Positions 3,042 through 44,830 of a DNA stretch of 49,811 bases are shown here, one piece after another. The position numbers and the translations under genes are program-made. The notes beneath the pieces are model-generated. The model was not told where the DNA came from. It ran no database searches and saw only the letters and a program-made list of their open reading frames with translations. This DNA is from a virus: the IMG/VR virus record IMGVR_UViG_3300005326_000015; one strand, 5' to 3'. The stretch's first letter is position 1; the number at the start of each line of letters is the position of its first letter.

Positions 3042-3070
3042 TTTACTTTGAATAGGCACTATGATATAAT
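3042..3070 (+). promoter_or_regulatory. SigA-type promoter (lysis cassette)
   Basis: TTTACT-N17-TATAAT with a TGa extended -10 (TGATATAAT), about 25 nt upstream of the 3094 gene. Confidence 0.6.
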
Positions 3071-4877: not shown

Positions 4878-4899
4878 ATGGATTTATATATGATATAAT
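4871..4899 (+). promoter_or_regulatory. Promoter of the Gln-rich protein / giant ORF unit
   Basis: TGATATAAT extended -10 at 4891..4899 (the same 9-mer as at 3062..3070). The -35 is weak. Confidence 0.5.
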
Positions 4900-4927: not shown

Positions 4928-6064
4928 ATGAGTTATAACTATGGACCTACTATGCTCGCCGACAGTGGCGGATACAGTAATACAACCACGCAAGACCCTA
5001 TGAAAAACTGGTTGCAAGAGCAAATCGACCTACTCATGAGAGGCGGCGGTGGAGGAGGCTCTGCATCGAACTATATGACGAAAGCCCAAGGAATGTTAGG
5101 TCCCTTGGATTTAAGTTCGTTTGAAGAACTTCGCGGTGTCATGAATGACCAGTACAACACCAGCAGCAATTCCTTGCAAAATCAGTACAACACCATGCTT
5201 CAGCAATTAGAAAAAGCAGGCACTCAAAATAAGCAGGCTTTCGGTAAAGGCAGAGCATCCATTATGGAAAACTCATTTGAGCGTGGCCGTGATGCGTTAA
5301 GAGCCTTGTCCTCAAGAGGTATGGCTGCATCCGGACTTCAGCAATTAGGTGATGTTCAGCAACGGATGGAAACAGGCCGTCAGACTTCCGGTTTGGCTGG
5401 TCAATTCTATGATGTTCAGGATAAACTGGCAGACAGCCAGGTCCAGGGTCAACAAAACTATGAGACCCAAAAACAGACCCTTGAGAATTCATTGAATCAG
5501 CAAATGGCTCAATTAAGTGCTCAGGAACTTCAATTCAAAAATTCTTACCAGCAGCAAGTGGCTTCCCTGGCAATGCAGATGCAACAACAGGCAGCGCAGG
5601 CTTCTGCTGCGAAATTAAACAGGGACCTGCAATTATTATCATTAAGACAGCAAATGGAACAAACTGGAGGAGACCCATTGACTGCTCCGGCAAATCAAGG
5701 GGGCATGATGGCTATTGCGATGGAACCTGGAGCAAATGACCTTGTTAAAATTGCTCAATTACAATCACAATTCAACTTGACACCTGAACAGGCAAAGTCC
5801 TACTTAGGTAAAGTTGAGGGACAATTACAACAACAAGTGTACCAGCAGGAATATAGCACCTTAATGAGTGCCGCACGGTCAGGCAAATACACACCATCCC
5901 AAATGAAGGAAATGATAAAAACCCTGAAGGACAGCGGTATTACCTTGAAACCTTCAGATGAATCCATCTTAATATCTATGGTCACTCCGGCAAGTAAAAA
6001 CACAATCGGCGGTGTGACGGACGCTTACGGTTACAGAGAATTGCTGGGGGACCAGTGGAAGTAG
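4928..6064 (+). CDS. Gln-rich coiled-coil protein (putative internal virion / ejection protein)
   Basis: 378 aa with RBS AAAGGAGAG. Contains a GGGGGG tract and long Q/N-rich heptad-like regions. Co-transcribed with the giant ORF. The functional call rests on position and composition only. Confidence 0.55.
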   Translation: MSYNYGPTMLADSGGYSNTTTQDPMKNWLQEQIDLLMRGGGGGGSASNYMTKAQGMLGPLDLSSFEELRGVMNDQYNTSSNSLQNQYNTMLQQLEKAGTQNKQAFGKGRASIMENSFERGRDALRALSSRGMAASGLQQLGDVQQRMETGRQTSGLAGQFYDVQDKLADSQVQGQQNYETQKQTLENSLNQQMAQLSAQELQFKNSYQQQVASLAMQMQQQAAQASAAKLNRDLQLLSLRQQMEQTGGDPLTAPANQGGMMAIAMEPGANDLVKIAQLQSQFNLTPEQAKSYLGKVEGQLQQQVYQQEYSTLMSAARSGKYTPSQMKEMIKTLKDSGITLKPSDESILISMVTPASKNTIGGVTDAYGYRELLGDQWK

Positions 6065-6075
6065 GAGGACATAAC

Positions 6076-9000
6076 ATGTCAAAAATTGATGAACTATTGA
6101 ATCGTTTAGGCCAATCAGCAGCCAAGGGTACGATTGATGCCATCGGACAAACACAGGGGGCGGCTAATAAGTCGCCTCTTTTGGAAGTTCAAAATCAAGT
6201 AGATAACTTAGCAGCGCGTATGCAGGGTTCGGGCATAGACCCGACTCAATTCACAGATACCCGAAACCCTTTAGAAAAGATGTTGAATCTTCGTCCTGAC
6301 CAAAATCTTTTGTTTGACATCTTTGAAGTCATTAACCGTCCTCAGCAAGCCTTGTTTGGAGGAATCCAGCATTTGCAAGAAGGCGGAGATTTTCTAAAAG
6401 GCATGGAACAAGGACTTACAAGGACAGGGGCTGAAGAATTCTCCGGCGGTCAAATCCTCCGTAATATGTTTTCAGGAGGCAAGCGCGAAGATGGCACGAT
6501 GGACTGGACAGACTGGGTTGGTTTTGGGTTGGATGTATTTGCTGACCCTGCTGACCTTGCTTTTCTACCTGTAAGTGCAGTAGCCAATGTCGGACAAGCA
6601 GCAACGAAATTGACAGGTAAAGCATCCACGAAGATGGACAACCTGATTAAAGGTGGCATGGCTGCCTTAGGAAAAACAGATGTAAATACCGTGGCTAAAG
6701 TAGCCAATGTGGCTGATGATGTCATGGATGTCGGAGAAAAGACCATGGCTTCCATGGCTAAAGATTCTTATAAACTAATTCGCGAAGGAGAGAAATTTGT
6801 ATCTCCTACGGATTTAACTATGCGTGCTTTATTTGGCACCGTGTCCTTTGGATTAAAAGGAGCGGACGCTAAGTTGGCTGAACCTTTAATGACGGTTCTT
6901 GGGAAAGCAGAAGACTATGGCAACTTCAAGAAAGTTGTATCTAACTTCTTCAATCAAACGAAAGCCTTCTCAAAGGAAGCCGTGGCTAACATTCGCTTGG
7001 CTTTTGGTGAAGAAGCCTTTGCTAAGAAATACATGTATGAGGCTTTGAAAGCCACCGATGAATTGTTAGAATCCTGGGCCGGACAATTAGGAGTTACACC
7101 ACAGCGCTTGTCAGAAATGATGGGCGAATACTGGTCGGTCACTTCTCCGGAGCAAATGATGAGAGCCTCCGATATTCTGTTAAAACAACGCGGAGCACAG
7201 TTGATTCCTTATTCGGATGAAATGTATGAGAGTTTGAGCAAAATGGTCAACTCAGAGCAAGCCATTGGTGATTTGATGCCTGTCATCGAATTTGAAGGTT
7301 TGTCGTATATTGACCTTCGTAAAATAACCAGGGAAATGGTTGACCAAAGTGCAAAAGAAACTTCGTTGGCTATCCCTAAAATGATTAAACATTTGGATGT
7401 AGATAACATCTCAAAGTATGCAGATATGCCTTTATTTGAGCAAGCATACACGGACTGGTATGTTCAATACCAACGCATGAGAAAAGGTTTATGGTCCATT
7501 CAAGGCTCTGAATTCGGTATGGGTACAGAGTACTTGAGAAATGTGCTAACGGAAGATGCAAGACATGCACTGGCTGAAGTGGATGCGTTGAACCATGTCT
7601 TTGATTTAGGCGGACAGACCACCAACAAGACTATGGGAGACCCGACGCTGTTTGCTGGCCGTAAGTATGGGGCTGACCCGATTACCGCAAGTAACTGGAT
7701 TAAGGCTGAGCGTACTTTAGATACCATGGAGCGTATGGAAAAGGTGTTAGGAGCACGCGCTAAAGTAAGCAATGCTACCGCAGACGCTATTCAAGCGGCT
7801 AAACTTGTTGAAGCCCAAGCCCTTGAAGCAGGAAGTAAGATTAAAATTGACCGTCGTGTCCGTGACCTGTTAGATGAGTTTATGGAAGAAACAGGTGTCA
7901 CCCAAGACATGCTGGATATTTATACCGTTATGATGGAAAACAAACTGGCTAAAACTGAAGTGGGCCGTGACTTGATTCGTCAAGCCAAAGCCGTCGGTTT
8001 AGTTGGAGAAGATGAGAAAATCTTAGATGTGTCTTCTCATCGCTTTACTGTGGGAGAAAAGAGTGGCTCTACCTTAATTGAGACTCTTGACCCTGAAGAC
8101 TATAACCGTTTGGTGTCATTAAAAGCATCAGACCCTAATTTCCAAAGTAAAGTATCGAAAGAAGTTTATAATGCCATCGGCTCTCAACCGATTCCTATGA
8201 AGTTCAAAGATGGTACGGCTTTAACGAAGCAACAGGCCAAAGGTTACAATAAATTGACCACTTGGGTTCAAAGACTAAAAGAACTTCGTGCTCCGACATT
8301 GACAGGGATGAAGTCTGAAGGTATCATGCAGATTGTTGATGACACAGTATGGTCCAAAATTGATGATGAATCCTTGAAGGGTATTGCATACAGAAGCAAA
8401 GTCATTGAAGCCACGGACGATATTGCAGAAGGTTTGACCAGTGTGCCTTTGAAACATGTGGATTTGGAAGAAGCCGCACAAGGCTTGGCCAAAGAACCTG
8501 ACTTCTTAAAGAAAGTTGTTGACAACTTAAACAAGGCCACAAACAACGCATCGTCTGAAGTTGCTTTGGGTGATTTGATTAGCAGACCTGAATCTATTAT
8601 TGACTACGCGCGCCGTGAAGTTTTAAGACAAGCACGCGAACAGTACACATATAGGCAAATGAAGACAGGCATCCAGGAATTACTTGGACGCGCTGCAACG
8701 GATGAAGATATGGCAAGAGCCGTCGCTTTGGCTGAAGCAGGAAAACCTTTGCACCCACGCTTATTTGACCCGAACTTTAACATTTGGCAGCGTACCATCG
8801 ACAATTTGGACGGTGACTTCGCTAAGGCCAAAGAGTTAGGTAAAGGTTTGAAGGATGGCACTTATGACCTCAAGACAGGTAAGAAACTTGACCTTGAAGG
8901 TGATGACAGTTACATGGTGTCCTTTGAGCAATCTTCGGACGCTTACACACCGGAAGAATACAATAAAATTATCAAAGAACTCATGGACGAAACTGGCAGC

Positions 9001-12000
9001 GAAGCCTATTTAGGTGTTTACGGTCAGCCTGAAATCAGTTTTAAGGTGGCTACGGAAGAAGAGGCCATGGCCTTAGCCAAGCGCTTTAATCAAGAATCCA
9101 TTTACTTTAACGGTAGAGTATTAGAGGATGGTACAAAAGTCCCTGCTGACTTGATTATGAATCCGGACTACAATCCTGCAACGAATCAAATTATTCGTGA
9201 TGTTGTGGAAGAAGTCCCTGTAACCAAAGCGCCGGAGCCTATTATCACTCCTGAAGACATTAAAGCACCGGAACCTGTCAAGGCTCCTGAGCCTGCTGCT
9301 CCTGCTGAGAAAACATATCTTGATAAGAAAATTGAACTTGATGAATTTGAGACAAAAGAATTGTCTTCGATAATGAATATCAATAAGCGGGGGACTTCTG
9401 TAAAACCTTTCAGAAAGAAAGTCTTGTCGAAAGACCTTGATGATTATATTGCTAAAGGATTAAGTGATGATGTTGGCGAAGATTCGTTCTTCAGAGCCTT
9501 CAATATTACAGACCATAAAGGGGCAAAAGGACGCTTAGAAGGAAGAGATTATGAACCTTTGACAAAAGCGCAATATGCAGACCGTGGGCTTGAAAAGTAC
9601 ACTCCTTTGAACAGTAACGCCCCAAAACTCAGAGTTGTGGACAGAGAACTGGCACAAAACCATCATGAAATCAAACGCGTACGAAGAGCCATGGAAAAAC
9701 TTGACGCGCAGATGGGTACAAATTATGCCAACACTGGCTTGCTGGGTGAGATTTACAAAGAAGTAGATGAAACAGCCGATGCGTTGGCAAAGATGAAACC
9801 TGAGGGGCATCAGATTTATAAGACAGCCGCAGACAGCAGAGACAAATTAGTTGGTAAACTTCAAAAAGACTTGAAACTTCCTTCTAAAAAATCCGTTGAT
9901 GCGTTGGCAAATGAAACATTAGTTGATAATGCTTTCTCAAACAGCCGTGTAGCCAGTGAGTTGCGACTAAGGGCAGCAGATTATCCTGTTGTTGACTCTT
10001 TCACGATGCGAAGTGAAGTTATGGAAGTGTTGTCTGAAGATGCTTATGCAATGATGACAGGCAACATTTTAAGTAAAGAATTTAATGACCGTTTTGGAAC
10101 CATTGCTGGAAGAACAAACCTAAATACACCTTTCTCAGAAGAAACTCAGACTTACCTTCAAAGATTGTACGATGAGGTTCAAAAAGTTAGACAGGGTTCC
10201 TTCCCTTATGCAAAGTTTATGCAAGATGGTGTACTTGATGAAGAGAGAGCCTTTGAGGCTTTAAATGATTACATGAAGTCTGTCAACGGAATGTCAGTGC
10301 CTGAATTGCAAGAAGAGATGAGAAGGGCTTATAACGCTATTGACGAGATTAAAAGGACAAAATATGACTTGAGACAGGTGCTTGAATCAGAAGAAGCATT
10401 ACAAAATCTTCAAAACACCTATCAAAAAACAAACAACAAGGCCTATCACTATGGTGACTTAGGTATAGGCAGAGATACGACTTTCAAAAATATGGGTAGT
10501 AGCAGAGGCACAGGGCACTTTGGTACAGGCACTTACTTCTTGGGAGAAGAGGCAGCAGAAAGTACAGGCAAAATATCGTCTTATGCAGGCCGCCCTTTGA
10601 ATGAAGTAAACTTTGATGACTATGCTACATTTAAGCCAGCAACAGAAGAAGCAGGATTTGCTTTACATGATGGATTAAAAGAAATCAACGCTGTCAGTGA
10701 CAATGTGCAAAGCATGTGGACTGGCCGACCTTACACCGATGCTGAAGGATGGACCCACTATCCTGAGACGATGCAAATGACAGACCGTGAAATGGCTAAA
10801 ATCGTTAGAGAAGCCATGACCAACGGTAAGTTGAGCACAGACTTGAGTAAAGTTATGGATGATGCCTTAGATTACAACCAACGAGCCATTTCCGCTGGTA
10901 AAATTGATTTATATTATGCTAACTTATTTGATTCATTTGTAGAAGAATTTTCAGAAAAGGGAGCAGACACCTTGAACAGATATTCTGCCTTGCTACCTGC
11001 TAATTTGAAAACTGTGTTCGATGATTTGATTGCAAAGACAAAGGATGGTGTGGCTGAAGTTTCCGACTTTACAGGAAGAGAAGTTGGTGACATCGTAAAT
11101 ATCTTTGAAGGCATGTCGAACATTCATAAAGCCTCCAACAAAGCCTTGAAGAAGTTTGAGAAGGCAGGCTTGCCAAGGATGAACAAGAGCGTTGAAGAAT
11201 TTGTGACTTCCTTGATAGAGACAGTTAAAAAAGGTATGTCAGGCGATGACATGGCTCCGACGGCTTCAACCAATTTCATGAAAATGATTGGCTATGAAGG
11301 TATAGATGTCCGTGGATTGAAAGCATTAGACAACACTACCTACGGCAGCGTTATATACGATGTCAAAAAGGCTGCACAGGAAGCACCGGAAGCGGCTGCT
11401 GTTAAGGTAACACCGGATGACTTCGCTGCTAAAGCACCTGAAAAGGTAACGGAGACTCTGCCGTTTGACTACAACACCAATGACTACAAAGGGACTGTAC
11501 CTGCACGCACCTTAAATGCTCAAAGCAAAAAAGTCACGCTGGCTACTCCTGAAGAGTTTAATGTCATGGAATCCTTGTATAAAAGGTCAGGACGAAGGGC
11601 TTTTGCAGATGACCCTTATGTCTTTGAAAGATTAGTTGCAGGGAAACCTGGCATGAAAATGAAGACTATATTTGAGATTGAGGACACATTAAACAATATA
11701 AATCAAAAAATCAATGAAGGTACGATGAGCCTTACAGAAAAAGAACTGGATGACTTGTACACCTTGATGCAAAAGATTGATGCTGAATTCGGAACGGATT
11801 TGTCCAAACATTCAATACTTTCCAAAAAGAAATTTGATACTTATAACAAACGACTCAGTGACTACAACGCGCAAAAGTTGGCTTCGACACCTAAAGTGGA
11901 CGATTCTGTGGACATCCTGGATGAAGTCACCGGAAAAGCGCCGGAGCCTGAGTTGGATATTAACGCGATGTTCAAAGAGGCTGAGCCTCCAGTTCAAACA

Positions 12001-14139
12001 GCGAAGGCCGTTAACCCTGAATTTGAATATGAAGCATTGAACGACGCAGACTTTGTAACAGACTTGAACGCTAAAGTTCAAATAAATCCATTCGTTGAGA
12101 AGGTTTCCGTGAACCAGGCCACCTTATTCCAGTTCGATGACAAGACAATTCAGAAGTTAGCCGAGCGGATGAGAGCCAAAGGGATATTCACGGAGCAGCA
12201 AATTGCTGATATTACATCTCCGTTGGGTCAGAAGTGGTTAAACAAGTACATTGATGAGCACCACAAAACCGTGTTCCAAGGTACGGAAGCATATATTGAC
12301 AAGACTTTGAAGTGGTTGGATGACACTCAGGCTCAAAAGGTCTTCGAGACATCCGTCACAGCCTCTATGGCCGATTTGATTGAAACCTTGCCAAGAACAG
12401 TACGCTCAGCCAAAGTGTTTGATGCAATACTGTCTCCGTCGGTGGCTGAAATGGGAAGCCCGAACTCACCATTCCAATGGATTGAATTCGAGGATGAACT
12501 GGTCAGCGCTGTTAAAAACGAACAGGGTGAAGTCATTAAAACCATTACCAAAAAGAAGATGCCAAAAGCACCGTTGGGCTTCAAACGGATGTCCAATTCC
12601 CAGGTGCAGGAGTTTATTACAAAGATTGAGCGCTTAAACAATTTCATTCAAAGTGATGAGTTGCTGAGCGTGGCTGACTGGATGAAGAGTCAACTTGCGA
12701 AGAACGCAAAGAACCCAACAGGCCAGTTAGTGATTGAGGCCAATGTGGCGCGGGTGCTTGAGTTGGATTACAACAAAGTATCCGGAGCGTTGCTGAAATT
12801 CGTTGACTTCTCAAACAACTTATTCAAACGAAACAAACTGTTATCCCTTGCCTTCAACATCCGCAACAGCATCGGTATTACGACGAACATGTTCTTGTCG
12901 GGTATGGAGTTTACAGACATTGCGCGCAGTTTTGCAAGGGCAGACAACATCTTCAAACAAGGACCTGAATTGCTGGCCAGGGCTGCAAGAGCCGACATAA
13001 ACACGCTGAGCAAGATATTCAGTCCGGAAGAGATGAAGATATACCAGGCCTATGAAATGTTCATTAAAGGACAGTTCACGCTGCCAAGAACCATAAAGCA
13101 AGCGATTGCGGAAGGTCTCTCCGGCTCAGGGTCTGAGTTGATGGATTTGGATGGAATTAAAAAGGACATCACGAAAAATGCTAAGATGCCTGAATGGCTC
13201 CAAAAGAGCAAGGATGCCCTGGATACTGTGTCGATTGTCAATGGATGGGGAAATGAAACTGTGGATGCTTATGGTCGTATGGCTGTAATGGTGCATGCCA
13301 TGGAAAATCCTGAGTACCTGCAAAAGTTGATGGTCCAGGACCCGATTGCCGCCGTTCGCTTAGCCATGTTTGACCCAAAGAACCTGTCCTCTTATGAGAC
13401 AGAGATTGCCAAGCGGGTCATCCCATTCTATTCATTTACGAAGCAGAACTTAGTCTATCATATGCAAAACCTGCCAAACAATGCGGTCCGCTACAACAGA
13501 ATCCAAAAAGGATTGCGCAGCGCATGGAATGGTATGGGATTAAAACAAGAAGATTTGGAAGCCTACAAACTGGAGCAAATGTATATCCCGATTCCAGGGA
13601 TGTCAGCGGATGGCAAGTACTTCGCCATTAAAGCGAACCTACCACAATCCGACTTCGGCGAATTCTTAGGTAATCCAATTCAACGAGTGCTTGCATCCAC
13701 TTCCCCGCTCATTCGGGCCGGATTTGAAGTGGCAACCAACAAGCAAATATTCACCGGACAGGAAATATCCGAATTCCCTGGTCAGCGCAGCAGCACGATG
13801 CCATTCCTTGATAGGAATACAGAGTACTGGCTGAGCCAAGCAGGGTTGGATGTTCCAATGAAAGGTCTTACCGGATTATACAACGCAGCAACAGGGCAAG
13901 ATGTCCAAGGAGGTCTCATGCAAGCGTCAAACATTATCTCTCAAGGGTCCAAAGAGCAAGGTCAACTAAACCGCGCCTACCAAACTTTAGAGAGATTGCA
14001 ACAAGGTGTCCGCTACCTTAAACAAGAGGAAAAGGACTTACTCAAACTGGCTGAAATAAACAGTCCGACCCCAGCACTGGATGCAGCCCAAAACAAAATG
14101 GATGCACTTATGGCTAAACTAAAAAAAGGCCCCCGATAA
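6076..14139 (+). CDS. Giant multidomain (polyvalent-type) protein, 2,687 aa, with putative ADP-ribosyltransferase-like segment
   Basis: Uninterrupted 8.06-kb ORF. ATG at 6076 lies 6 nt after AGGAGGA (the track start 6055 is a GTG inside the previous gene). Pro-rich KAPEP linkers at 9226..9309, ~11430 and ~11935 suggest domain boundaries. The motif YHYGD..(N22)..GHFGTGTYFLGEE..(N19)..LNEVNF lies at 10444..10614. A bidirectional terminator follows. Confidence 0.9.
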   Translation: MSKIDELLNRLGQSAAKGTIDAIGQTQGAANKSPLLEVQNQVDNLAARMQGSGIDPTQFTDTRNPLEKMLNLRPDQNLLFDIFEVINRPQQALFGGIQHLQEGGDFLKGMEQGLTRTGAEEFSGGQILRNMFSGGKREDGTMDWTDWVGFGLDVFADPADLAFLPVSAVANVGQAATKLTGKASTKMDNLIKGGMAALGKTDVNTVAKVANVADDVMDVGEKTMASMAKDSYKLIREGEKFVSPTDLTMRALFGTVSFGLKGADAKLAEPLMTVLGKAEDYGNFKKVVSNFFNQTKAFSKEAVANIRLAFGEEAFAKKYMYEALKATDELLESWAGQLGVTPQRLSEMMGEYWSVTSPEQMMRASDILLKQRGAQLIPYSDEMYESLSKMVNSEQAIGDLMPVIEFEGLSYIDLRKITREMVDQSAKETSLAIPKMIKHLDVDNISKYADMPLFEQAYTDWYVQYQRMRKGLWSIQGSEFGMGTEYLRNVLTEDARHALAEVDALNHVFDLGGQTTNKTMGDPTLFAGRKYGADPITASNWIKAERTLDTMERMEKVLGARAKVSNATADAIQAAKLVEAQALEAGSKIKIDRRVRDLLDEFMEETGVTQDMLDIYTVMMENKLAKTEVGRDLIRQAKAVGLVGEDEKILDVSSHRFTVGEKSGSTLIETLDPEDYNRLVSLKASDPNFQSKVSKEVYNAIGSQPIPMKFKDGTALTKQQAKGYNKLTTWVQRLKELRAPTLTGMKSEGIMQIVDDTVWSKIDDESLKGIAYRSKVIEATDDIAEGLTSVPLKHVDLEEAAQGLAKEPDFLKKVVDNLNKATNNASSEVALGDLISRPESIIDYARREVLRQAREQYTYRQMKTGIQELLGRAATDEDMARAVALAEAGKPLHPRLFDPNFNIWQRTIDNLDGDFAKAKELGKGLKDGTYDLKTGKKLDLEGDDSYMVSFEQSSDAYTPEEYNKIIKELMDETGSEAYLGVYGQPEISFKVATEEEAMALAKRFNQESIYFNGRVLEDGTKVPADLIMNPDYNPATNQIIRDVVEEVPVTKAPEPIITPEDIKAPEPVKAPEPAAPAEKTYLDKKIELDEFETKELSSIMNINKRGTSVKPFRKKVLSKDLDDYIAKGLSDDVGEDSFFRAFNITDHKGAKGRLEGRDYEPLTKAQYADRGLEKYTPLNSNAPKLRVVDRELAQNHHEIKRVRRAMEKLDAQMGTNYANTGLLGEIYKEVDETADALAKMKPEGHQIYKTAADSRDKLVGKLQKDLKLPSKKSVDALANETLVDNAFSNSRVASELRLRAADYPVVDSFTMRSEVMEVLSEDAYAMMTGNILSKEFNDRFGTIAGRTNLNTPFSEETQTYLQRLYDEVQKVRQGSFPYAKFMQDGVLDEERAFEALNDYMKSVNGMSVPELQEEMRRAYNAIDEIKRTKYDLRQVLESEEALQNLQNTYQKTNNKAYHYGDLGIGRDTTFKNMGSSRGTGHFGTGTYFLGEEAAESTGKISSYAGRPLNEVNFDDYATFKPATEEAGFALHDGLKEINAVSDNVQSMWTGRPYTDAEGWTHYPETMQMTDREMAKIVREAMTNGKLSTDLSKVMDDALDYNQRAISAGKIDLYYANLFDSFVEEFSEKGADTLNRYSALLPANLKTVFDDLIAKTKDGVAEVSDFTGREVGDIVNIFEGMSNIHKASNKALKKFEKAGLPRMNKSVEEFVTSLIETVKKGMSGDDMAPTASTNFMKMIGYEGIDVRGLKALDNTTYGSVIYDVKKAAQEAPEAAAVKVTPDDFAAKAPEKVTETLPFDYNTNDYKGTVPARTLNAQSKKVTLATPEEFNVMESLYKRSGRRAFADDPYVFERLVAGKPGMKMKTIFEIEDTLNNINQKINEGTMSLTEKELDDLYTLMQKIDAEFGTDLSKHSILSKKKFDTYNKRLSDYNAQKLASTPKVDDSVDILDEVTGKAPEPELDINAMFKEAEPPVQTAKAVNPEFEYEALNDADFVTDLNAKVQINPFVEKVSVNQATLFQFDDKTIQKLAERMRAKGIFTEQQIADITSPLGQKWLNKYIDEHHKTVFQGTEAYIDKTLKWLDDTQAQKVFETSVTASMADLIETLPRTVRSAKVFDAILSPSVAEMGSPNSPFQWIEFEDELVSAVKNEQGEVIKTITKKKMPKAPLGFKRMSNSQVQEFITKIERLNNFIQSDELLSVADWMKSQLAKNAKNPTGQLVIEANVARVLELDYNKVSGALLKFVDFSNNLFKRNKLLSLAFNIRNSIGITTNMFLSGMEFTDIARSFARADNIFKQGPELLARAARADINTLSKIFSPEEMKIYQAYEMFIKGQFTLPRTIKQAIAEGLSGSGSELMDLDGIKKDITKNAKMPEWLQKSKDALDTVSIVNGWGNETVDAYGRMAVMVHAMENPEYLQKLMVQDPIAAVRLAMFDPKNLSSYETEIAKRVIPFYSFTKQNLVYHMQNLPNNAVRYNRIQKGLRSAWNGMGLKQEDLEAYKLEQMYIPIPGMSADGKYFAIKANLPQSDFGEFLGNPIQRVLASTSPLIRAGFEVATNKQIFTGQEISEFPGQRSSTMPFLDRNTEYWLSQAGLDVPMKGLTGLYNAATGQDVQGGLMQASNIISQGSKEQGQLNRAYQTLERLQQGVRYLKQEEKDLLKLAEINSPTPALDAAQNKMDALMAKLKKGPR
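12064..12081. repeat. TTGAAC-N6-GTTCAA palindrome (copy in giant ORF, in-frame LNAKVQ)
   Basis: ttgaacgctaaagttcaa; TTG is a codon in the ORF frame. Confidence 0.9.
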
Positions 14140-15046: not shown

Positions 15047-15301
15047 TTAACCCTCCATTTTCGTTATTTCATAATCAAAGAATAAACGGATGCTCTTCTT
15101 ATTCTTCCCCATCCCGCCATTATGGCCGTGAGGTACTGGCTCTCCAAAATCGACATAATACATATCCATTTCCTTGTAGGCCTCGTATCGGTCTATTTTG
15201 GCAACGGTACCTACCATGTCCTGGTAGATTTCGGAATTAGGTATTGTGAGGTCAGGAGAGGTCACTTTGACTCTATCTCCTACTTTGATGATTGCTGGCA
15301 T
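15047..15301 (-). CDS. Hypothetical small protein (SH3/KOW-like N-terminus?)
   Basis: The start at 15301 (MPAIIKVGDRVKV) follows GGAGGG and overlaps the upstream stop (TAATG). The longer track ORF has no RBS. Confidence 0.55.
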   Translation of the reverse strand: MPAIIKVGDRVKVTSPDLTIPNSEIYQDMVGTVAKIDRYEAYKEMDMYYVDFGEPVPHGHNGGMGKNKKSIRLFFDYEITKMEG

Positions 15302-19814: not shown

Positions 19815-20041
19815 TCTTCTGCATCCAATCCATCGACAAACCCTTCCAAATAGGCCATGGCTTCGACTTTGTGCTCAAACACACGCTCTACCATCTTATG
19901 CCCTTTTCTGAACAAATAGATACGAAAAGGATTCCATTGTGATATGTCGAGTTTTGCGCTTATAGTGATGTGAGGATAGTCTTGATTTATTTTAGCACAC
20001 TCCTCATTGAGGCACTCAAGTTGAGTTATGTAGTTATTCAT
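19811..20041 (-). CDS. Hypothetical protein
   Basis: The start at 20041 (MNNYITQLE) follows AAGGAGA. ATGA overlap with the VRR-NUC gene. Confidence 0.55.
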   Translation of the reverse strand: MNNYITQLECLNEECAKINQDYPHITISAKLDISQWNPFRIYLFRKGHKMVERVFEHKVEAMAYLEGFVDGLDAEE

Positions 20042-20258
20042 TTTCAGGGTCTCCTTGCCTCGCAATACCTGCGTTGGCCCACATAACCACTTCTTCCAGT
20101 TTAGTCAATGCTAAAGCCCGCTCTCTTCCAATAGGCACAACATCGTTGATAAAGTGGGCCAAGCGTCTGCAACGCGTCCTCACTTCTTCAAAAGCCATCT
20201 CATTTTCTTTGACAGGTTTATGATAACTAAACTTATTGTCAATGTCTTCAGGTCTCAT
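20034..20258 (-). CDS. Small helical-hairpin protein with N-terminal FSYHKP motif (possible Acb2/Tad1-hairpin-like nucleotide sponge)
   Basis: The start at 20258 (MRPEDIDNKFSYHKP...) follows GAGGAG with a TAATG overlap. Sequence: ...RCRRLAHFINDVVPIGRERALALTKLEEVVMWANAGIAR. Confidence 0.6.
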   Translation of the reverse strand: MRPEDIDNKFSYHKPVKENEMAFEEVRTRCRRLAHFINDVVPIGRERALALTKLEEVVMWANAGIARQGDPENE

Positions 20259-22691: not shown

Positions 22692-23216
22692 CTACTTGTT
22701 CAGCAGTTGCAAGAACTGCTCCAATTCCGTCAAGAACCTTTTTAATTCGTTGGCATAACCTGCCACACCACATACTTGCACTTCTTCATCCAAAGCCTCA
22801 ATGAACTCAGTTGTCAGCCAGTTGGCTGGATTGTAACGCTCATTGTATGCGGTTTCGGGTTTGAAGTTTAAGAATTTCTTTGCTGCTGCATATCTTGACT
22901 CACCCCAAACTAAACCCATCAGAATGACTTCGCGGGCAAAGCGTGTGCGGTCTGTTTTGGCCAACCGACGGATATTAAAGTATTGATTTGAGATTTGGCG
23001 CAAGCGCGCTAAGTCACAGCGTGTGAGCAAGCCAACATATTCAAGAACCTCACTGGCTCTTGCGCTGTACTCACTAAACCAAACATCGTAAATTAGGACG
23101 AACCTCAATTCAAGGATTCGTGGATGGTATTTTAGGTCAGTGATGTCTATGTCATTGACCACGATTCGTGTCATCGGTTTGACTTCGGAATCGTTTAAGC
23201 CTCTATGATTTGGCAT
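22692..23216 (-). CDS. Hypothetical protein
   Basis: 174 aa; strong RBS AAGGAGGA upstream of the ATG at 23216. Confidence 0.6.
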   Translation of the reverse strand: MPNHRGLNDSEVKPMTRIVVNDIDITDLKYHPRILELRFVLIYDVWFSEYSARASEVLEYVGLLTRCDLARLRQISNQYFNIRRLAKTDRTRFAREVILMGLVWGESRYAAAKKFLNFKPETAYNERYNPANWLTTEFIEALDEEVQVCGVAGYANELKRFLTELEQFLQLLNK

Positions 23217-30649: not shown

Positions 30650-31447
30650 TTAATAGGACTCCGCAAGTTCGCGGGTTAAGAAAAAGTGAATACCGCTGGC
30701 ACATTCCTCCCAACGGTTGTCTTCAAAATCATATTTAGGTCTTACAGTCTTGCCAACTTCATAAGCAAAGCGGTCACAGTGCATGGACCATCCTTTATCC
30801 ACACTTACATAATCAGTGTACGGCAAAGCATCCATTGCTGGTTGTAAAATCTCCAGCACAAGCGCCTCCGAGGCCCTGCATTTCAAGGTCGTTGACATAC
30901 TCCGCTGAGCATGCGCAGGTATCAGCAATTTACACAAATAGCCGTCTTCCAATTTCTTCCAAACAATCAGGTCTCCCTCAGGGATGACATTGACAAAACC
31001 GACAGTCTCTTCGTTGATGCCAAAAGGTGTCAAAAATAGACAATCCATAAACCTTGCGTTCGTTCCGACGGCTCCTCCGACATATACATTGTCAAAAGTG
31101 CATCTGTAAAAACGGACTCCGCGAAAATCTGAACCTGTAAACTGAAGGTCTTTGAAAAAGCAATCCACAAAGGTCGCTCCCTTAAAACAGCCCTGCTCAA
31201 AAAACCAGTTTTGCTCAAAATAACACTTCTCAAAATGAGACTCAGGCAAATAATTTGCGTATCCCAAAGGCTCTTCCACGATGCGGGTGTTTTCCAGTTG
31301 GAAACGAAGGCCCTCAGAGTCATTGCGCTTAGGCACAAAGAGGTGATAATGTGCCTCAATCATTGCATCCATTTTTTCCTTCGCGATTTCTGTTAAGACG
31401 GTTTTGGTAAGGTCAGCGCCTTGTGATGTGTTTGATGTGTTAAACAT
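30650..31447 (-). CDS. Pentapeptide-repeat protein with C-terminal globular domain
   Basis: CFKGA TFVDC FFKDL QFTGS DFRGV RFYRC TFDNV has Phe/Leu at every fifth residue over about 9 repeats. The C-terminal domain ends ...CASGIHFFLTRELAESY. Confidence 0.75.
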   Translation of the reverse strand: MFNTSNTSQGADLTKTVLTEIAKEKMDAMIEAHYHLFVPKRNDSEGLRFQLENTRIVEEPLGYANYLPESHFEKCYFEQNWFFEQGCFKGATFVDCFFKDLQFTGSDFRGVRFYRCTFDNVYVGGAVGTNARFMDCLFLTPFGINEETVGFVNVIPEGDLIVWKKLEDGYLCKLLIPAHAQRSMSTTLKCRASEALVLEILQPAMDALPYTDYVSVDKGWSMHCDRFAYEVGKTVRPKYDFEDNRWEECASGIHFFLTRELAESY

Positions 31448-35187: not shown

Positions 35188-35536
35188 AATTTCTCCAGCC
35201 TGCTGAATCTCATCAGCGCGCTCCAGGTCTTTTGTGTAAGCGCGGACGGCCTGTAAAGATGGCCGTTTCGATTTTTAGTGTTTTCGTGCGGATGGTCCAT
35301 TATTCAATCTGTGTCGTGGCGCGCTGTCTCATAGCATTTCGTTGACGCGCTCACAGTCCCTTCGCTGGTCCTCATCCTAATTTTGCATCCAGTCAATCGA
35401 AGGCCTTAGCGCGCTAGATGCTCAGCGCTCATATGCTCCTCAATCCTGTAATACCCGCAATTCCCGCGGAGGCGTTTTCATCATTTTCTGCTGTTAGGTT
35501 AAGCCCTCCCTCAGCCGTTTCCGTCCTGATACCCAT

Positions 35537-35565
35537 ACATTACAGCATCGCTGATAAGGTGTCAA
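35537..35565 (-). promoter_or_regulatory. Candidate early leftward promoter (copy 1 of a duplicated element)
   Basis: Minus strand reads TTGACA-N12-TGCTGTAATGT. The same 23 fixed positions recur at 36342..36370. Confidence 0.45.
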
Positions 35566-35624
35566 CAAAATTTTAACATTTTCTTAAAATATTTTTTTTT
35601 GGAGGCCAAAATAGGCTTTTTGAT

Positions 35625-35767
35625 ATTTTGATAGATGTTCACATAAAATATATTTTTAGAATATAGTTTATGTTCTAAATATATAGAATACCAGTTTTCC
35701 TATCAAAAAAATGAAAACTTACTTTTTATATGTTAGTAAGATAATTATTATTATCATCTATCAAAAT
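35625..35767. repeat. 13-bp inverted repeat pair in AT-rich control region
   Basis: ATTTTGATAGATG (35625..35637) pairs with CATCTATCAAAAT (35755..35767). CTATCAAAA also occurs at 35700. An imperfect palindrome TTAGAATATA-gtt-TATGTTCTAA lies at 35656..35678. Confidence 0.7.
35678..35706 (-). promoter_or_regulatory. Candidate second leftward promoter
   Basis: Minus strand reads TTGATA-N17-TATATT. Its -10 abuts the imperfect palindrome at 35656..35678. Confidence 0.4.
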
Positions 35768-35873
35768 TCCAAAAACAGATTTTTAACCATAAATGAAAAT
35801 AGACCTATTTAGTCCTAATAAGGTGTAATTTTACACTATTGTACTAGTGCAAGTAGTACACTCCCGATAAACC

Positions 35874-35898
35874 AAAAAAAAAGGCCCGAAGGCCTCAG
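35874..35898 (-). terminator. Rho-independent terminator of the 35902..36300 gene
   Basis: Minus strand reads AGGCC-ttcg-GGCCT followed by a T9 run, starting 4 nt after the stop codon. Confidence 0.7.
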
Positions 35899-35901
35899 AT
35901 G

Positions 35902-36300
35902 CTATTGCCAATACGTTCCGTCTCCATGTTTGAGCATGTTTGCCAGTGAATGGCAGCGAATAGGGATACCCGCCACGTGATGCACAGCCGCCATGCTGTG
36001 ACCATCCTGCAAGTTGAGAATAACGCGGTCAGCGCTGTAATTGCCAGCCATACGGCGGAGCGCGTGGCGTAGCGGTGCTTGATGCTTAGCGGATGTGGTC
36101 ATCGAATAGCGGGTATCATTCACCAGCAGGACCAATCCCGCGCCCTGTATCACTGTGAATTCTGCGATACATGTTAAGTATGACATTAGGCGGTTGCCGT
36201 CGGTCCATAGGTTGCCTGTGTGAGAATCAGCCGCGCGACGGTCCATGAATGATGCTACTACTGCTGCATTATCTAATCGTTTCATTGAGATTTTCTCCAT
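35902..36300 (-). CDS. Hypothetical protein in a GC-rich moron (SY-T-IA ... YS-TTS-KHQ motif family)
   Basis: The ORF is open to 36345, but the candidate promoter at 36342..36370 places the transcription start downstream of that ATG. Likely starts are 36300 (MEKISM) or 36285 (MKRLDN, preceded by GGAGA). Motif: NLWTDGNRLMSYLTCIAEF...NDTRYSMTTSAKHQ. Confidence 0.55.
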   Translation of the reverse strand: MEKISMKRLDNAAVVASFMDRRAADSHTGNLWTDGNRLMSYLTCIAEFTVIQGAGLVLLVNDTRYSMTTSAKHQAPLRHALRRMAGNYSADRVILNLQDGHSMAAVHHVAGIPIRCHSLANMLKHGDGTYWQ

Positions 36301-36341
36301 GCGCGCCGCCTGCTGTGAGGCCGTCCGCGTCTTATACCACC

Positions 36342-36370
36342 ACATTACAGCAGGCCCTGAAATATGTCAA
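36342..36370 (-). promoter_or_regulatory. Candidate promoter of the moron gene (copy 2 of the duplicated element)
   Basis: Minus strand reads TTGACA-N12-TGCTGTAATGT, followed by GGTAT-AG-ACGG as in copy 1. Confidence 0.45.
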
Positions 36371-36548
36371 CAATTTTCTTACAATCCTGCTGATATTTCG
36401 TGTGCTGCTGCTGAGCGGCCAAAAAGATGGCGGGGTGGGTTTGATTGCAGTATTCGCACACGCGCGAAGTTGGCCTTATATATAAATAGCAATTCCCTAT
36501 CCCCCACCACCACACAGAAACCCAAACGAAACAACCCAGGGGGTGGGT

Positions 36549-36576
36549 TTGCAAAGGGACTTAATTGTGCTATAAT
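36549..36576 (+). promoter_or_regulatory. SigA-type promoter of the metallophosphoesterase gene
   Basis: TTGCAA-N16-TATAAT with TGc (TGCTATAAT). The -35 overlaps one copy of the GGGGTGGGTTTG direct repeat. Confidence 0.55.
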
Positions 36577-36607
36577 GGACAAGAAAAGGAACCAAGGAGG
36601 AACCCAA

Positions 36608-37822
36608 ATGATTGAACCAAACAACACACTGTTTAGACGAGAAGAGGAATCAGACGACGCTTATATCTACCGGATTTCGGAGAAGCGTGGGATAGACGAA
36701 TACTTACCAGGGTGGAACGCGGTGACGGCTTTCCTGAACGAGCAGATGGGAACACATTACAGTGACTTCTACTTCAGGAAGAAACACAAGGAGTACAAAG
36801 CAGCCTTGCAGAAGGAAGCAGAGAAGATGGTGGATGAAGACGGCGCGAGTATCCTGCTGGACATGAAGCGGGACTTGCTGTACATACAACAGGTCAAGAC
36901 CAGGGATGTGCTGCGTGAGAAGCGGAAACTGTTAAGGGATGAGGCGCGGATAGACGAGTTGCGGGATACGGTCATCCAGGCGGCGGCGAACATGCCGGAC
37001 ATGCAACTGCCGACAGTCATCGGAGAGGTCATGCACGGACCAGGGAACGAGGGCATCCTTTGCATAGGGGACTGGCATTACGGCGGGCAGTACAAGCACT
37101 TTTTGGGAGAGTTTAACATCCAGGTGTTGCAGGACAGGGTAGAGGACCTTTTAGGGAAGGTCATCAAGTATGTGCGCAAACACAACATCACATTGTTACA
37201 TGTTATCAACTTAGGGGACATGATAGATGGGAACATCCATGTCAGCACCAGGGTGCAGGCGGAGAAGGATGCGATAGAGCAAACGATGGGGGTGGCAGAG
37301 TTATTGGCCTGGTTCTTGATGGCCTTACAGAAGGTGGTGCCGAATACGACTTACCGGAGCACATTGGACAACCACAGCCGCATCAATAAGAGTTACTATG
37401 AGCATATAGAGAAAGAGAACTTTGGGCGCATCATTGACTGGTTTATGGAGGAGCGCTTCAAACGGCATAACAGTGGCATCCAGTTACCGAAGGACAATCC
37501 GGATGAGAACATCGGGTACTTCGAGTTGAAGGATGGCAGTCCGGTGGCCTTCGTGCACGGACATTTAGACAAGGTAAACACCGCGTTTCAGAATTTGAGC
37601 AGCGCGCTGCGGGTACAGTTGAAATATGTGTTCTTCGGGCATTATCACCAGGCCAAGATGAAAGAGTTCCAAATGGGTAAAGTCTTCGTGAATGGCAGCC
37701 TTAAAGGGTCGGACTATTATGCCATGGACAACCGCTATTTTGGCACAGCCAGTCAGATGATGATGGTCATGGATGGAGACGACGAATTGGTGTTGGTAAT
37801 GAACTTTGACAGAAAAATCTAG
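36608..37822 (+). CDS. Calcineurin-like metallophosphoesterase with ~140-aa N-terminal extension
   Basis: The ATG at 36608 follows AAGGAGG; the track ORF from 36245 is an antisense-overlap artefact. Motifs GDWHYG, LGDMIDGNIH, LDNHSR, FVHGHLD and FGHYHQ match the MPE/Mre11-type signature set. Confidence 0.75.
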   Translation: MIEPNNTLFRREEESDDAYIYRISEKRGIDEYLPGWNAVTAFLNEQMGTHYSDFYFRKKHKEYKAALQKEAEKMVDEDGASILLDMKRDLLYIQQVKTRDVLREKRKLLRDEARIDELRDTVIQAAANMPDMQLPTVIGEVMHGPGNEGILCIGDWHYGGQYKHFLGEFNIQVLQDRVEDLLGKVIKYVRKHNITLLHVINLGDMIDGNIHVSTRVQAEKDAIEQTMGVAELLAWFLMALQKVVPNTTYRSTLDNHSRINKSYYEHIEKENFGRIIDWFMEERFKRHNSGIQLPKDNPDENIGYFELKDGSPVAFVHGHLDKVNTAFQNLSSALRVQLKYVFFGHYHQAKMKEFQMGKVFVNGSLKGSDYYAMDNRYFGTASQMMMVMDGDDELVLVMNFDRKI

Positions 37823-37834
37823 GTATGCTATAAT
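37806..37834 (+). promoter_or_regulatory. Perfect consensus SigA promoter upstream of the packaging/structural genes
   Basis: TTGACA (37806..37811), a 17-nt spacer ending in TGc, then TATAAT (37829..37834). Confidence 0.75.
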
Positions 37835-37875
37835 GCCTATGTGTTAGATGAATGTTTTCCCTCCTTTCTCGGAAG

Positions 37876-37904
37876 AAGCCCGCTCTTGTGGGCTTTTTCT
37901 GTTT
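37876..37904 (+). terminator. Rho-independent terminator ~45 nt downstream of the consensus promoter
   Basis: AAGCCC-N8-GGGCTT hairpin followed by TTTCTGTTT. Confidence 0.7.
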
Positions 37905-37914
37905 GTGATATAAT
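37886..37914 (+). promoter_or_regulatory. Second candidate promoter overlapping the terminator
   Basis: TTGTGG-N17-TATAAT with TGa (TGATATAAT, the same 9-mer as at 3062 and 4891). Confidence 0.45.
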
Positions 37915-37933
37915 GTCAACGAGGTGATATGAA

Positions 37934-38323
37934 ATGGCGGCAAAAACGACGCTGACGGAACTGATTAAAAAGGACAAGGGGCTGAGTGACGAGCAGAAGA
38001 AGGCTTTCATCTCTATGGCGAACTTGTTCAACTCCAATTTCCGTGAGAACATTCAAAAGACCAGCCTGGAAATGGCTGAAGAAACAGGGATGACCTATGA
38101 TGACTGGAAGGAATTCCTGGAGCATGCTTCGATACGAAATTACATAGATGGCTTCGTAAATGAGCAGATTCGCAAAAAGACGGATGTGCAGTTGCTGGCC
38201 GGAGAGAGAACGCGGGATGCGGCCTCTTTGCGGAAGACACTGAGGGAAGAAGAGAAGGGTGTTGACAACTCGAACTTCATCATCATGCGCATGCCGGAGA
38301 AAGTAGAGTACGAGGATGACTAA
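37934..38323 (+). CDS. Putative terminase small subunit
   Basis: 129 aa with RBS GAGGTGA. Lies immediately upstream of, and overlapping, the large terminase gene. Charged helical protein. The call rests on position only. Confidence 0.5.
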   Translation: MAAKTTLTELIKKDKGLSDEQKKAFISMANLFNSNFRENIQKTSLEMAEETGMTYDDWKEFLEHASIRNYIDGFVNEQIRKKTDVQLLAGERTRDAASLRKTLREEEKGVDNSNFIIMRMPEKVEYEDD

Positions 38324-41962: not shown

Positions 41963-41966
41963 GAAG

Positions 41967-44385: not shown

Positions 44386-44395
44386 ATGCTATAAT
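44367..44395 (+). promoter_or_regulatory. Candidate promoter of the tail gene unit
   Basis: TATACA-N17-TATAAT with TGc (TGCTATAAT). Confidence 0.55.
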
Positions 44396-44413
44396 TACTG
44401 CGAGGTGATACCT

Positions 44414-44830
44414 ATGAACATTAAAGATTTAGTAGCCAGTTCAAATATTTTAACCGATGAGTCCGTATCCAATGCTGACGCGCGTAAATTCTTGAACATG
44501 GCCATTGCAGACATTAACACGACTCTGTTTACGGAGTTGCCCTTTTTCGACACAAATTATGATACCAGTTATACCGCGTTGACCGACAGTTGGCAGTTGA
44601 ATCTTTTGATTCCTTATTGCAACTGGGCTGTCAAAATGAATGATGGTTCCATCACCGAAGCAAGAGAATATCTCCGGATGTACTATGACTCTCTGACAAA
44701 GTTTGAAAGAGTTTACATGAGCATCCTTGCTGAAGAACACCTTGGAACACATACAGGTGCTTATCAAATGGACACTTCAACAGCCATTGACTGGGGATGG
44801 ATGAATGGACGGTTTGGTGGTGGTAAATAA
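44414..44830 (+). CDS. Putative head-tail adaptor/connector protein
   Basis: The ATG at 44414 lies 5 nt after GAGGTGA (the track start 44405 is a GTG inside the RBS). 138 aa. The call rests on position. Confidence 0.5.
   Translation: MNIKDLVASSNILTDESVSNADARKFLNMAIADINTTLFTELPFFDTNYDTSYTALTDSWQLNLLIPYCNWAVKMNDGSITEAREYLRMYYDSLTKFERVYMSILAEEHLGTHTGAYQMDTSTAIDWGWMNGRFGGGK

Follow-up and report, generated by a model that had tools for sequence, protein, structure and literature searches.

The question raised by this locus is what a consensus promoter followed closely by a strong terminator does directly upstream of the packaging genes of a phage. The locus lies in the virus record IMGVR_UViG_3300005326_000015 of IMG/VR, and the whole stretch analysed (49,811 nucleotides, hereafter the window) was found to be essentially the whole phage genome of ~49.8 kb. 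Between an exonuclease gene and a terS-like gene, the window contained a promoter (P1), an intrinsic terminator, and a further promoter (P2) nested in that terminator. We read P1 and the terminator, with about even confidence, as a stand-alone small-RNA gene placed in the terminator-promoter junction that heads the packaging genes.

P1 was located on the + strand and was composed of TTGACA (37806–37811), a 17-nucleotide spacer, TG (37826–27), and TATAAT (37829–37834). Its −35 element fell within the final codons of the exonuclease gene, the stop codon of which was present at 37820–37822. The original prediction had named P1 the best promoter in the window, and it was indeed the single 12/12 promoter match on either strand; from the base composition, a window is expected to hold 0.001–0.003 such 12/12 sites that also have the TGn extension. 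When the whole window was scanned for a promoter followed by a terminator within 170 nucleotides, P1 with its hairpin was the sole strong unit, and the two remaining matches were 10/12 sites, both in an AT-rich region. Each sequence feature was found at the position originally given for it. The P1-terminator feature is real at this place and is not a chance match.

The hairpin of the terminator contained 14 pairs with the core GCCCGC/GUGGGC and the loop UCUU, followed by UUUUUCUGUUU. The strength that had been ascribed to it was confirmed by its rank in the window, whereas the distance of ~35–60 nucleotides past the start had to be corrected, as the hairpin begins 29 nucleotides past the predicted start (~37841). 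The 66-nucleotide transcript was found to fold with −22.8 kcal/mol (z = −4.9), a value equalled by 0 of 200 shuffles, and nucleotides 1–29 were unpaired in the fold. This unpaired part contained the CU tract UUUUCCCUCCUUUCU (TTTTCCCTCCTTTCT), within which is found CUCCUUUC, a sequence that we take to equal the 3′ end of the 16S rRNA of Firmicutes (...CACCUCCUUUCUA). On the + strand of the window, CTCCTTTC had two occurrences: this one, and a site at which it is complementary to the Shine-Dalgarno (SD) sequence of a minus-strand gene.

The terS-like gene was found to be conserved in 54 related loci, which were fetched as loci with a homologue of it directly upstream of TerL; the homologues of its product (129 amino acids) were 28–46% identical. 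About half of these loci had no room for a promoter-terminator unit (the gap was < 50 nucleotides in 19 of the first 47), and ~30 loci contained one to three tandem promoter-RNA-terminator units, with the next promoter present in the T-tract of each terminator. In at least 19 of the 54 loci, one such RNA (106–151 nucleotides) upstream of terS carried CTCCTTT(C); in locus L164 the unit with CTCCTTT(C) was located 1.4 kb upstream of terS. A closing helix of 6–14 bp preceded the motif in 14 of the 16 relatives' RNAs that were folded, joining the 5′ end of the RNA with a segment that ends 1–25 nucleotides before the motif. This helix occurred in at least six sequence versions, among them GUUAGGGUAA/UUACUCUAAC, GUGUAUG/CAUACAC, and GGUAUUAAG/CUUAAUACC, and the domain enclosed by it holds a second CUCC or CCUCC. 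The terminal motif, 3–15 nucleotides before the terminator stem, was fully unpaired in 12 of 15 RNAs and 75–100% unpaired in 14 of 15. In one subfamily, 97.5% of the cells pair, vs. 28–52% for the slid-partner controls, and three terminator pairs with compensatory changes were found within one subfamily. The subfamilies of the relatives' RNAs could not be aligned consistently with one another by MAFFT. A second conserved small RNA of ~80 nucleotides was found just upstream of the terS promoter in L139, L141, L176, L179, and L191. It carries ACCACCAAAAAC before the terminator GGAAUAG...CUAUUCC, its ACCACC is complementary to the terS SD sequence AAGGUGGUGA of the same phages, and the window has no counterpart of it.

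The window has in common with these relatives the exact 8-mer CUCCUUUC, extended in the window to CCCUCCUUUCU. As in the relatives, the motif is unpaired just 5′ of the terminator, shares its strand with terS, which follows downstream, and has the next promoter nested behind that terminator. The window RNA is linked to the relatives' RNAs by this motif, position, and architecture, and from the base frequencies the chance of finding the 8-mer within ~15 nucleotides of the P1 hairpin was calculated as roughly 2e-4. One of the two readings first proposed, a discrete small RNA of ~55–60 nucleotides with an anti-SD tract, thereby gains support from analogous units in at least 19 loci, in which the same CUCCUUUC is unpaired. 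As judged from its sequence, the feature belongs to a class of small transcription units that recurs in these phages and is so far undescribed, and the RNAs with the CU motif before the packaging genes probably constitute a new phage small-RNA family. The window RNA would be a minimal version, alike in motif and position, and common descent is unproven.

Other explanations of the motif-bearing segment were also considered. A 21-codon open reading frame (ORF), MNVFPPFSEEARSCGLFLFVI (37848–37913), spans the hairpin and is without an SD sequence. In the relatives L143 and L142, which were read frame by frame, no ORF was found to span the motif on either strand, and the leader peptide was rejected on both grounds. 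A minus-strand gene preceded by the complement AGAAAGGAGGG was rejected, since no start codon follows it in the window, L137, L142, or L143. CGCTCTT (37882–37888) in the stem and loop of the terminator shares 7 of 8 bases with lambda boxA; CGCUCUU was treated as a chance match, being unlike the Firmicutes form and buried in the stem. Rfam gave nothing credible for the whole window at the gathering score, for 37700–38050 at E ≤ 10 (the best match, isrB, had 19 bits vs. a gathering score of 35), or for eight of the relatives' loci at E ≤ 1.

P2 contained TTGTGG (37886–91), a spacer of 17 nucleotides, and TGaTATAAT (37906–14). The element TGNTATAAT was found six times vs. 1.7 expected, always on the + strand and always intergenic, at 3062–3070, 4891–4899, 36568–36576, 37826–37834 (P1), 37906–37914 (P2), and 44387–44395. 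Five of the six sites were located 0–220 nucleotides downstream of a terminator-like hairpin (hairpins at 2819, ~4851, 37870, and 44357), and behind the hairpin at 41966, where the portal gene has ended, a similar promoter was found that has no TG. P2 (37909–37936) and the promoter at 44387 (44390–44416) have TATAAT-N6-GAGGTGATA-N5/6-ATG in common, so that their mRNAs would start almost at the SD sequence and have very short leaders. With a promoter behind each terminator, the structural genes appear to be cut into units, each with its own host-type promoter. We infer that the terS-portal unit has P2 as its regular promoter and the exonuclease unit the hairpin at 37870 as its regular end, P1 being an extra piece. 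A weaker second promoter nested in the terminator had been noted originally; P2 does lie at that place, whereas it is no minor site, being one of six extended −10 promoters that head + strand units.

A further comparison was made with the relatives that carry the same exonuclease, in all of which the exonuclease was the first + strand gene past the divergent region. After the exonuclease stop codon, L208 contained a terminator and then TGgTATAAT, L212 contained TGaTATAAT alone, and L210 and L213 had a gap of 14–15 nucleotides. In L194, TGaTATAAT overlapped the exonuclease stop codon, as in the window, and was followed by an RNA of ~60 nucleotides and a terminator; the sequence of this RNA differs from that of the window RNA. 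L194 contained three tandem promoter-short RNA-terminator units behind the exonuclease gene (802–1117), and the second RNA was found to carry an SD-like AGGAGAAAG immediately before its terminator. These variable states argue that the P1-RNA unit is an optional insert at a terminator-promoter junction and not a fixed control point of the late genes.

If P1 and the terminator form a small-RNA gene, host RNA polymerase with the primary sigma factor would start near 37841 and stop at the hairpin, releasing an RNA of ~60 nucleotides whose 5′ arm (29 nucleotides) is unstructured and whose 3′ hairpin is stable. The exonuclease mRNA from the promoter at 36548–36576 would end at the same terminator, and the small RNA may also arise from the 3′ end of that mRNA. 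The common terminator would give the locus the layout of a small RNA in a 3′ untranslated region (UTR) with its own internal promoter. P2 would drive the packaging and head genes, independent of read-through from P1. The CU tract may pair in trans with purine-rich ribosome-binding sites (RBSs) of the AAAGGAGG type on host or phage mRNAs and lower their translation; this SD-pairing function is the least certain part of the proposal.

Two genes, the portal gene (40076) and one that starts at 15301, had perfect 10-nucleotide complements of the RNA at their SD sequences, and the genome-wide duplex scan for targets gave no outlier. The best phage RBS partner was that of the gene starting at 31447 (−25.6 kcal/mol), a value matched or beaten by 31% of the controls with a shuffled 5′ part. 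This gene (30650–31447, minus strand) encodes a 265-amino-acid protein with pentapeptide repeats and DUF5758. Module-specific silencing was rejected as a clean model, since the seed binds early and late SD sequences equally. The SD sequences of the + strand often reach GGTGAT (GGUG in 6 of 20), and those of the minus strand are mostly AAGGAGG (GGUG in 4 of 35). Pairing with the 16S tail had a mean of −12.9 kcal/mol for the + strand SD sequences vs. −10.9 kcal/mol for those of the minus strand, and the 16S tail was preferred over the RNA seed by 2.55 kcal/mol on the + strand and by 0.25 kcal/mol on the minus strand (p = 0.001, post hoc). A bolder and improbable model, for which this post hoc preference is the one weak hint, is that the RNAs mimic the 16S 3′ tail (CCUCCUUUCU) and, transcribed from the genome's strongest promoter, compete with ribosomes at canonical AAAGGAGG RBSs, so that host and perhaps early-phage translation would be shut down. 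The structural mRNAs would escape, because their RBSs extend into GGUGAU, which is paired only by the real 16S tail.

Several results weigh against the small-RNA reading. The window RNA, with its 29 unpaired nucleotides, lacks the helical body and the second-CCUCC domain of the relatives' RNAs, and the covariance model R1, built from six relatives' RNAs, recovered its own subfamily and L196 but missed both the window and the second subfamily. The common motif may thus have arisen by convergence, and homology of the RNAs is unproven. The short RNA of L194, the closest exonuclease-bearing relative, is found at the same place and has no CU motif. Among 55 RBSs compared with shuffled controls no outlier target was found, and seed pairing was equal for early-module and late-module SD sequences (p = 0.33). 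The start and the 3′ end of the RNA from P1 and the efficiency of the terminator are themselves predictions.

Among the rival explanations, we consider it unlikely that the locus is punctuation, in which P1 would strengthen or insulate transcription where two modules meet, or supply leaky read-through to terS, and the short RNA would be a functionless by-product. This genome is generally punctuated by terminator-promoter cassettes, the unit varies from one exonuclease-bearing relative to another, the L194 RNA at the same place differs in sequence, and no target was found, all of which would fit a by-product. Such an RNA is, however, not expected to keep a motif or a helix, and at least 19 of the relatives' RNAs, otherwise unalignable between subfamilies, have the identical 8-nucleotide motif unpaired and in the same position, with the closing helix kept via compensatory changes. 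We give little credence to a lambda PR′-tR′-like arrangement, in which P1 would be a constitutive late promoter and the terminator would keep the packaging and head genes off until RNA polymerase is modified at or near P1 by a phage antiterminator, the modified polymerase also passing the later terminators at 41966, 44357, 2819, and 4515. This arrangement, the other reading first proposed, is suggested by a strong promoter with a close strong terminator directly upstream of late genes, by further terminators inside the + strand module, and by the many early ORFs without known function. Moreover, 6S, the product of lambda PR′-tR′, is a stable, Hfq-bound RNA (bioRxiv 10.1101/2024.10.31.621285), so a small RNA and antitermination can coexist. 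It was nevertheless left unsupported, as terS has P2 in front of it, past the terminator, P1 is preceded by the gene of an exonuclease and not of a regulator, and at this site the exonuclease-bearing relatives without the unit show a bare terminator-promoter junction or lack a gap altogether. Each terminator of the module has a promoter behind it, five of these with TGNTATAAT, and with its own promoter behind every terminator read-through is not needed. No gene was found to be conserved beside the RNA unit in the relatives. The early transcribed region is without a clear −10-like TANNNT pause element, since it reads TAGATG, with no T at position 6; TAGGGT or TAGTGT was present in the early transcribed region of some relatives, where the same bases are also part of the closing helix. 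As had been reported originally, no Q-like or RinA/ArpU-like regulator was recognisable: matches to the Q family, RinA, ArpU, Ltr-type activators, and sigma factors were absent among the 41 ORFs scanned (33 of the 36 predicted on the minus strand and 8 on the plus strand), most of which were covered by one or two of Pfam, PHROGs, and NCBIfam. Nothing supported the product of 22692–23216, once put forward as a candidate antiterminator; it had no match in Pfam, PHROGs, NCBIfam, or the PDB sequences, and its position between the DNA polymerase and primase genes suggests a role in replication. RNA-only antitermination needs a structured RNA, which the window does not have; the longer RNAs of the relatives could in principle act in this way.

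There is also a slim chance that the CU tract works in cis, in the exonuclease 3′ UTR or in the read-through RNA, by sequestering an RBS or by binding a protein that tunes termination. The tract is indeed present both in the exonuclease 3′ UTR and 5′ of terS, the leader was found to pair around the terS start in a 120-nucleotide read-through model (z = −3.1), and the ACCACC of the relatives' second small unit is complementary to GGTGGT of the terS SD sequence. Pairing between the tract and the terS RBS was weak, however (−7.0 kcal/mol, among the weakest of all genes). No alternative antiterminator fold was found to compete with the core GC stem, and in the relatives two terminators and two promoters stand between the motif RNA and terS. 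It is highly improbable that CTCCTTTC is an operator in the DNA for a protein controlling the next downstream promoter. The motif is located ~55 nucleotides (window) or ~75 nucleotides (relatives) upstream of the next transcription start, as an operator might be, but it consists of one asymmetric 8-mer, the distance of which from the promoter varies, and it is conserved together with a compensating RNA helix, always on the transcribed strand and unpaired. The small-RNA gene is thus the reading that we prefer.

The features of the locus are listed in Table 1.

Table 1. Features at the junction of the exonuclease and terS-like genes, with positions in the window.
Feature	Position	Strand	Remark
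Exonuclease-unit promoter, TTTGCA-17-TGcTATAAT	36548–36576	+	one of the six TGNTATAAT sites; same arrangement in L208
Metallophosphoesterase/exonuclease gene	36608–37822	+	phrog_284, YonJ_N-type
P1, TTGACA-17-TGcTATAAT	37806–37834	+	consensus sigma-70/sigma-A promoter, by sequence
Predicted small non-coding RNA, ~58–64 nucleotides	37841–37904	+	start from the −10 position, end from the U-tract
Unpaired CU tract	37855–37869	+	contains the motif common to the relatives' RNAs
Intrinsic terminator	37870–37904	+	14-bp hairpin (core 37878–37893) and U-tract; top-ranked terminator of the window
P2, TTGTGG-17-TGaTATAAT	37886–37914	+	nested in the terminator 3′ arm/T-tract; likely promoter of the packaging/head unit
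SD sequence GAGGTGA and terS-like gene	37921–27 and 37934–38323	+	gene end overlaps the TerL start (38316)

The + strand module was found to run from 36.5 kb to 49.8 kb and on from position 1 to 14.1 kb, with the exonuclease, terS-like, TerL, portal, head, and tail genes, and is closed by one ORF of 2694 amino acids (6055–14139, + strand). The terS name rests on gene position only, there being no family match for the product. The listed ORF of 525 amino acids (36245–37822) is oversized, as the true start of the exonuclease is the ATG at 36608, behind an SD sequence and a promoter; the extra N-terminal 121 codons (36245–36607) overlap a minus-strand ORF (35902–36345). The minus-strand replication module (14.1–36.3 kb) contained polymerase, primase, helicase, RecE-like, and Sak-like genes. 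Its gene at 20034–20258 encodes a 74-amino-acid product matching the Acb2/Tad1 hairpin domain (Pfam E = 3.6e-18), which is likely a sponge for cyclic-nucleotide immune signals. Between the divergent modules, ~700 nucleotides (35200–35900) were non-coding, GC-rich at 35200–35560 and very AT-rich at 35570–35870, with promoter-like sites on both strands in the latter; this stretch may hold early promoters or an origin.

The uncultured relatives were 46–48-kb contigs binned with rumen Clostridia and Bacilli, the TerL of which was 45–60% identical over the aligned stretch; the best TerL match in the protein database was 56% identical. The closest cultured phages were the Paenibacillus larvae phages API480 and SV21 (TerL 38.5% identical), in which no comparable unit was found. 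Cultured phages gave no DNA match to the window, and a first TerL-based scan of the genome collection gave no match.

To our knowledge, the small RNAs of phages with Gram-positive hosts are almost unstudied. The units described here would add an RNA family, present in uncultured phages of the rumen and gut, that is marked by a conserved anti-SD motif, by its conserved position before the packaging genes and, in the relatives, by a compensating helix. If the RNA does compete with ribosomes for their binding sites, this would be a new route of host takeover. With several host-type extended −10 units in the structural genes, there is no need to seek a new antiterminator.

Several known systems share parts of this layout. 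In lambda, the module depends on a Q-type factor, the gene of which usually lies beside PR′, and on late genes without a promoter of their own. Like lambda PR′-6S-tR′, the window has a strong constitutive promoter, a close intrinsic terminator with the late genes next, and a short stable transcript, which is predicted here; unlike lambda, it has no Q-like gene among the 41 ORFs scanned and no clear pause element, P2 precedes the late genes, and the arrangement is dispensable in close relatives. The lambda 6S RNA is 194 nucleotides long, Hfq-bound, and has a few partners (bioRxiv 10.1101/2024.10.31.621285). Another phage small RNA, lambda PreS (LPR1), activates dnaN translation through Hfq in E. 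coli (bioRxiv 10.1101/2024.10.31.621285). PreS, which base-pairs with host mRNAs, resembles the window RNA in that its 3′ end is an operon terminator, and it has no sequence relation to the window RNA.

The conAn2 element of Gram-positive plasmids is described as a large RNA element acting together with a protein (PMC8191782). In both the conAn2 and the put systems, as in the window, a long operon has an RNA element between its strong promoter and its first terminator, whereas the window RNA has only 29 unstructured nucleotides before the hairpin and every terminator here precedes a promoter. The put RNA of HK022 mediates processive antitermination. The 3′-UTR RNAs of the DapZ and MicL type are Hfq-dependent and enterobacterial. 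As in the window, their promoter overlaps the end of the upstream coding region and the small RNA uses the terminator of the parental mRNA. The RsaE/RoxS-type RNAs of Firmicutes are short, have their own promoter and terminator, and carry unpaired C/U-rich motifs complementary to the SD sequence. The window RNA differs from them in being phage-encoded, in having no Rfam match, and in that its motif is the exact 16S tail CUCCUUUCU and not CCCC. It resembles them in its short length, its own promoter and terminator, and its unpaired CU motif, and the relatives' RNAs, like RsaE, carry two such motifs.

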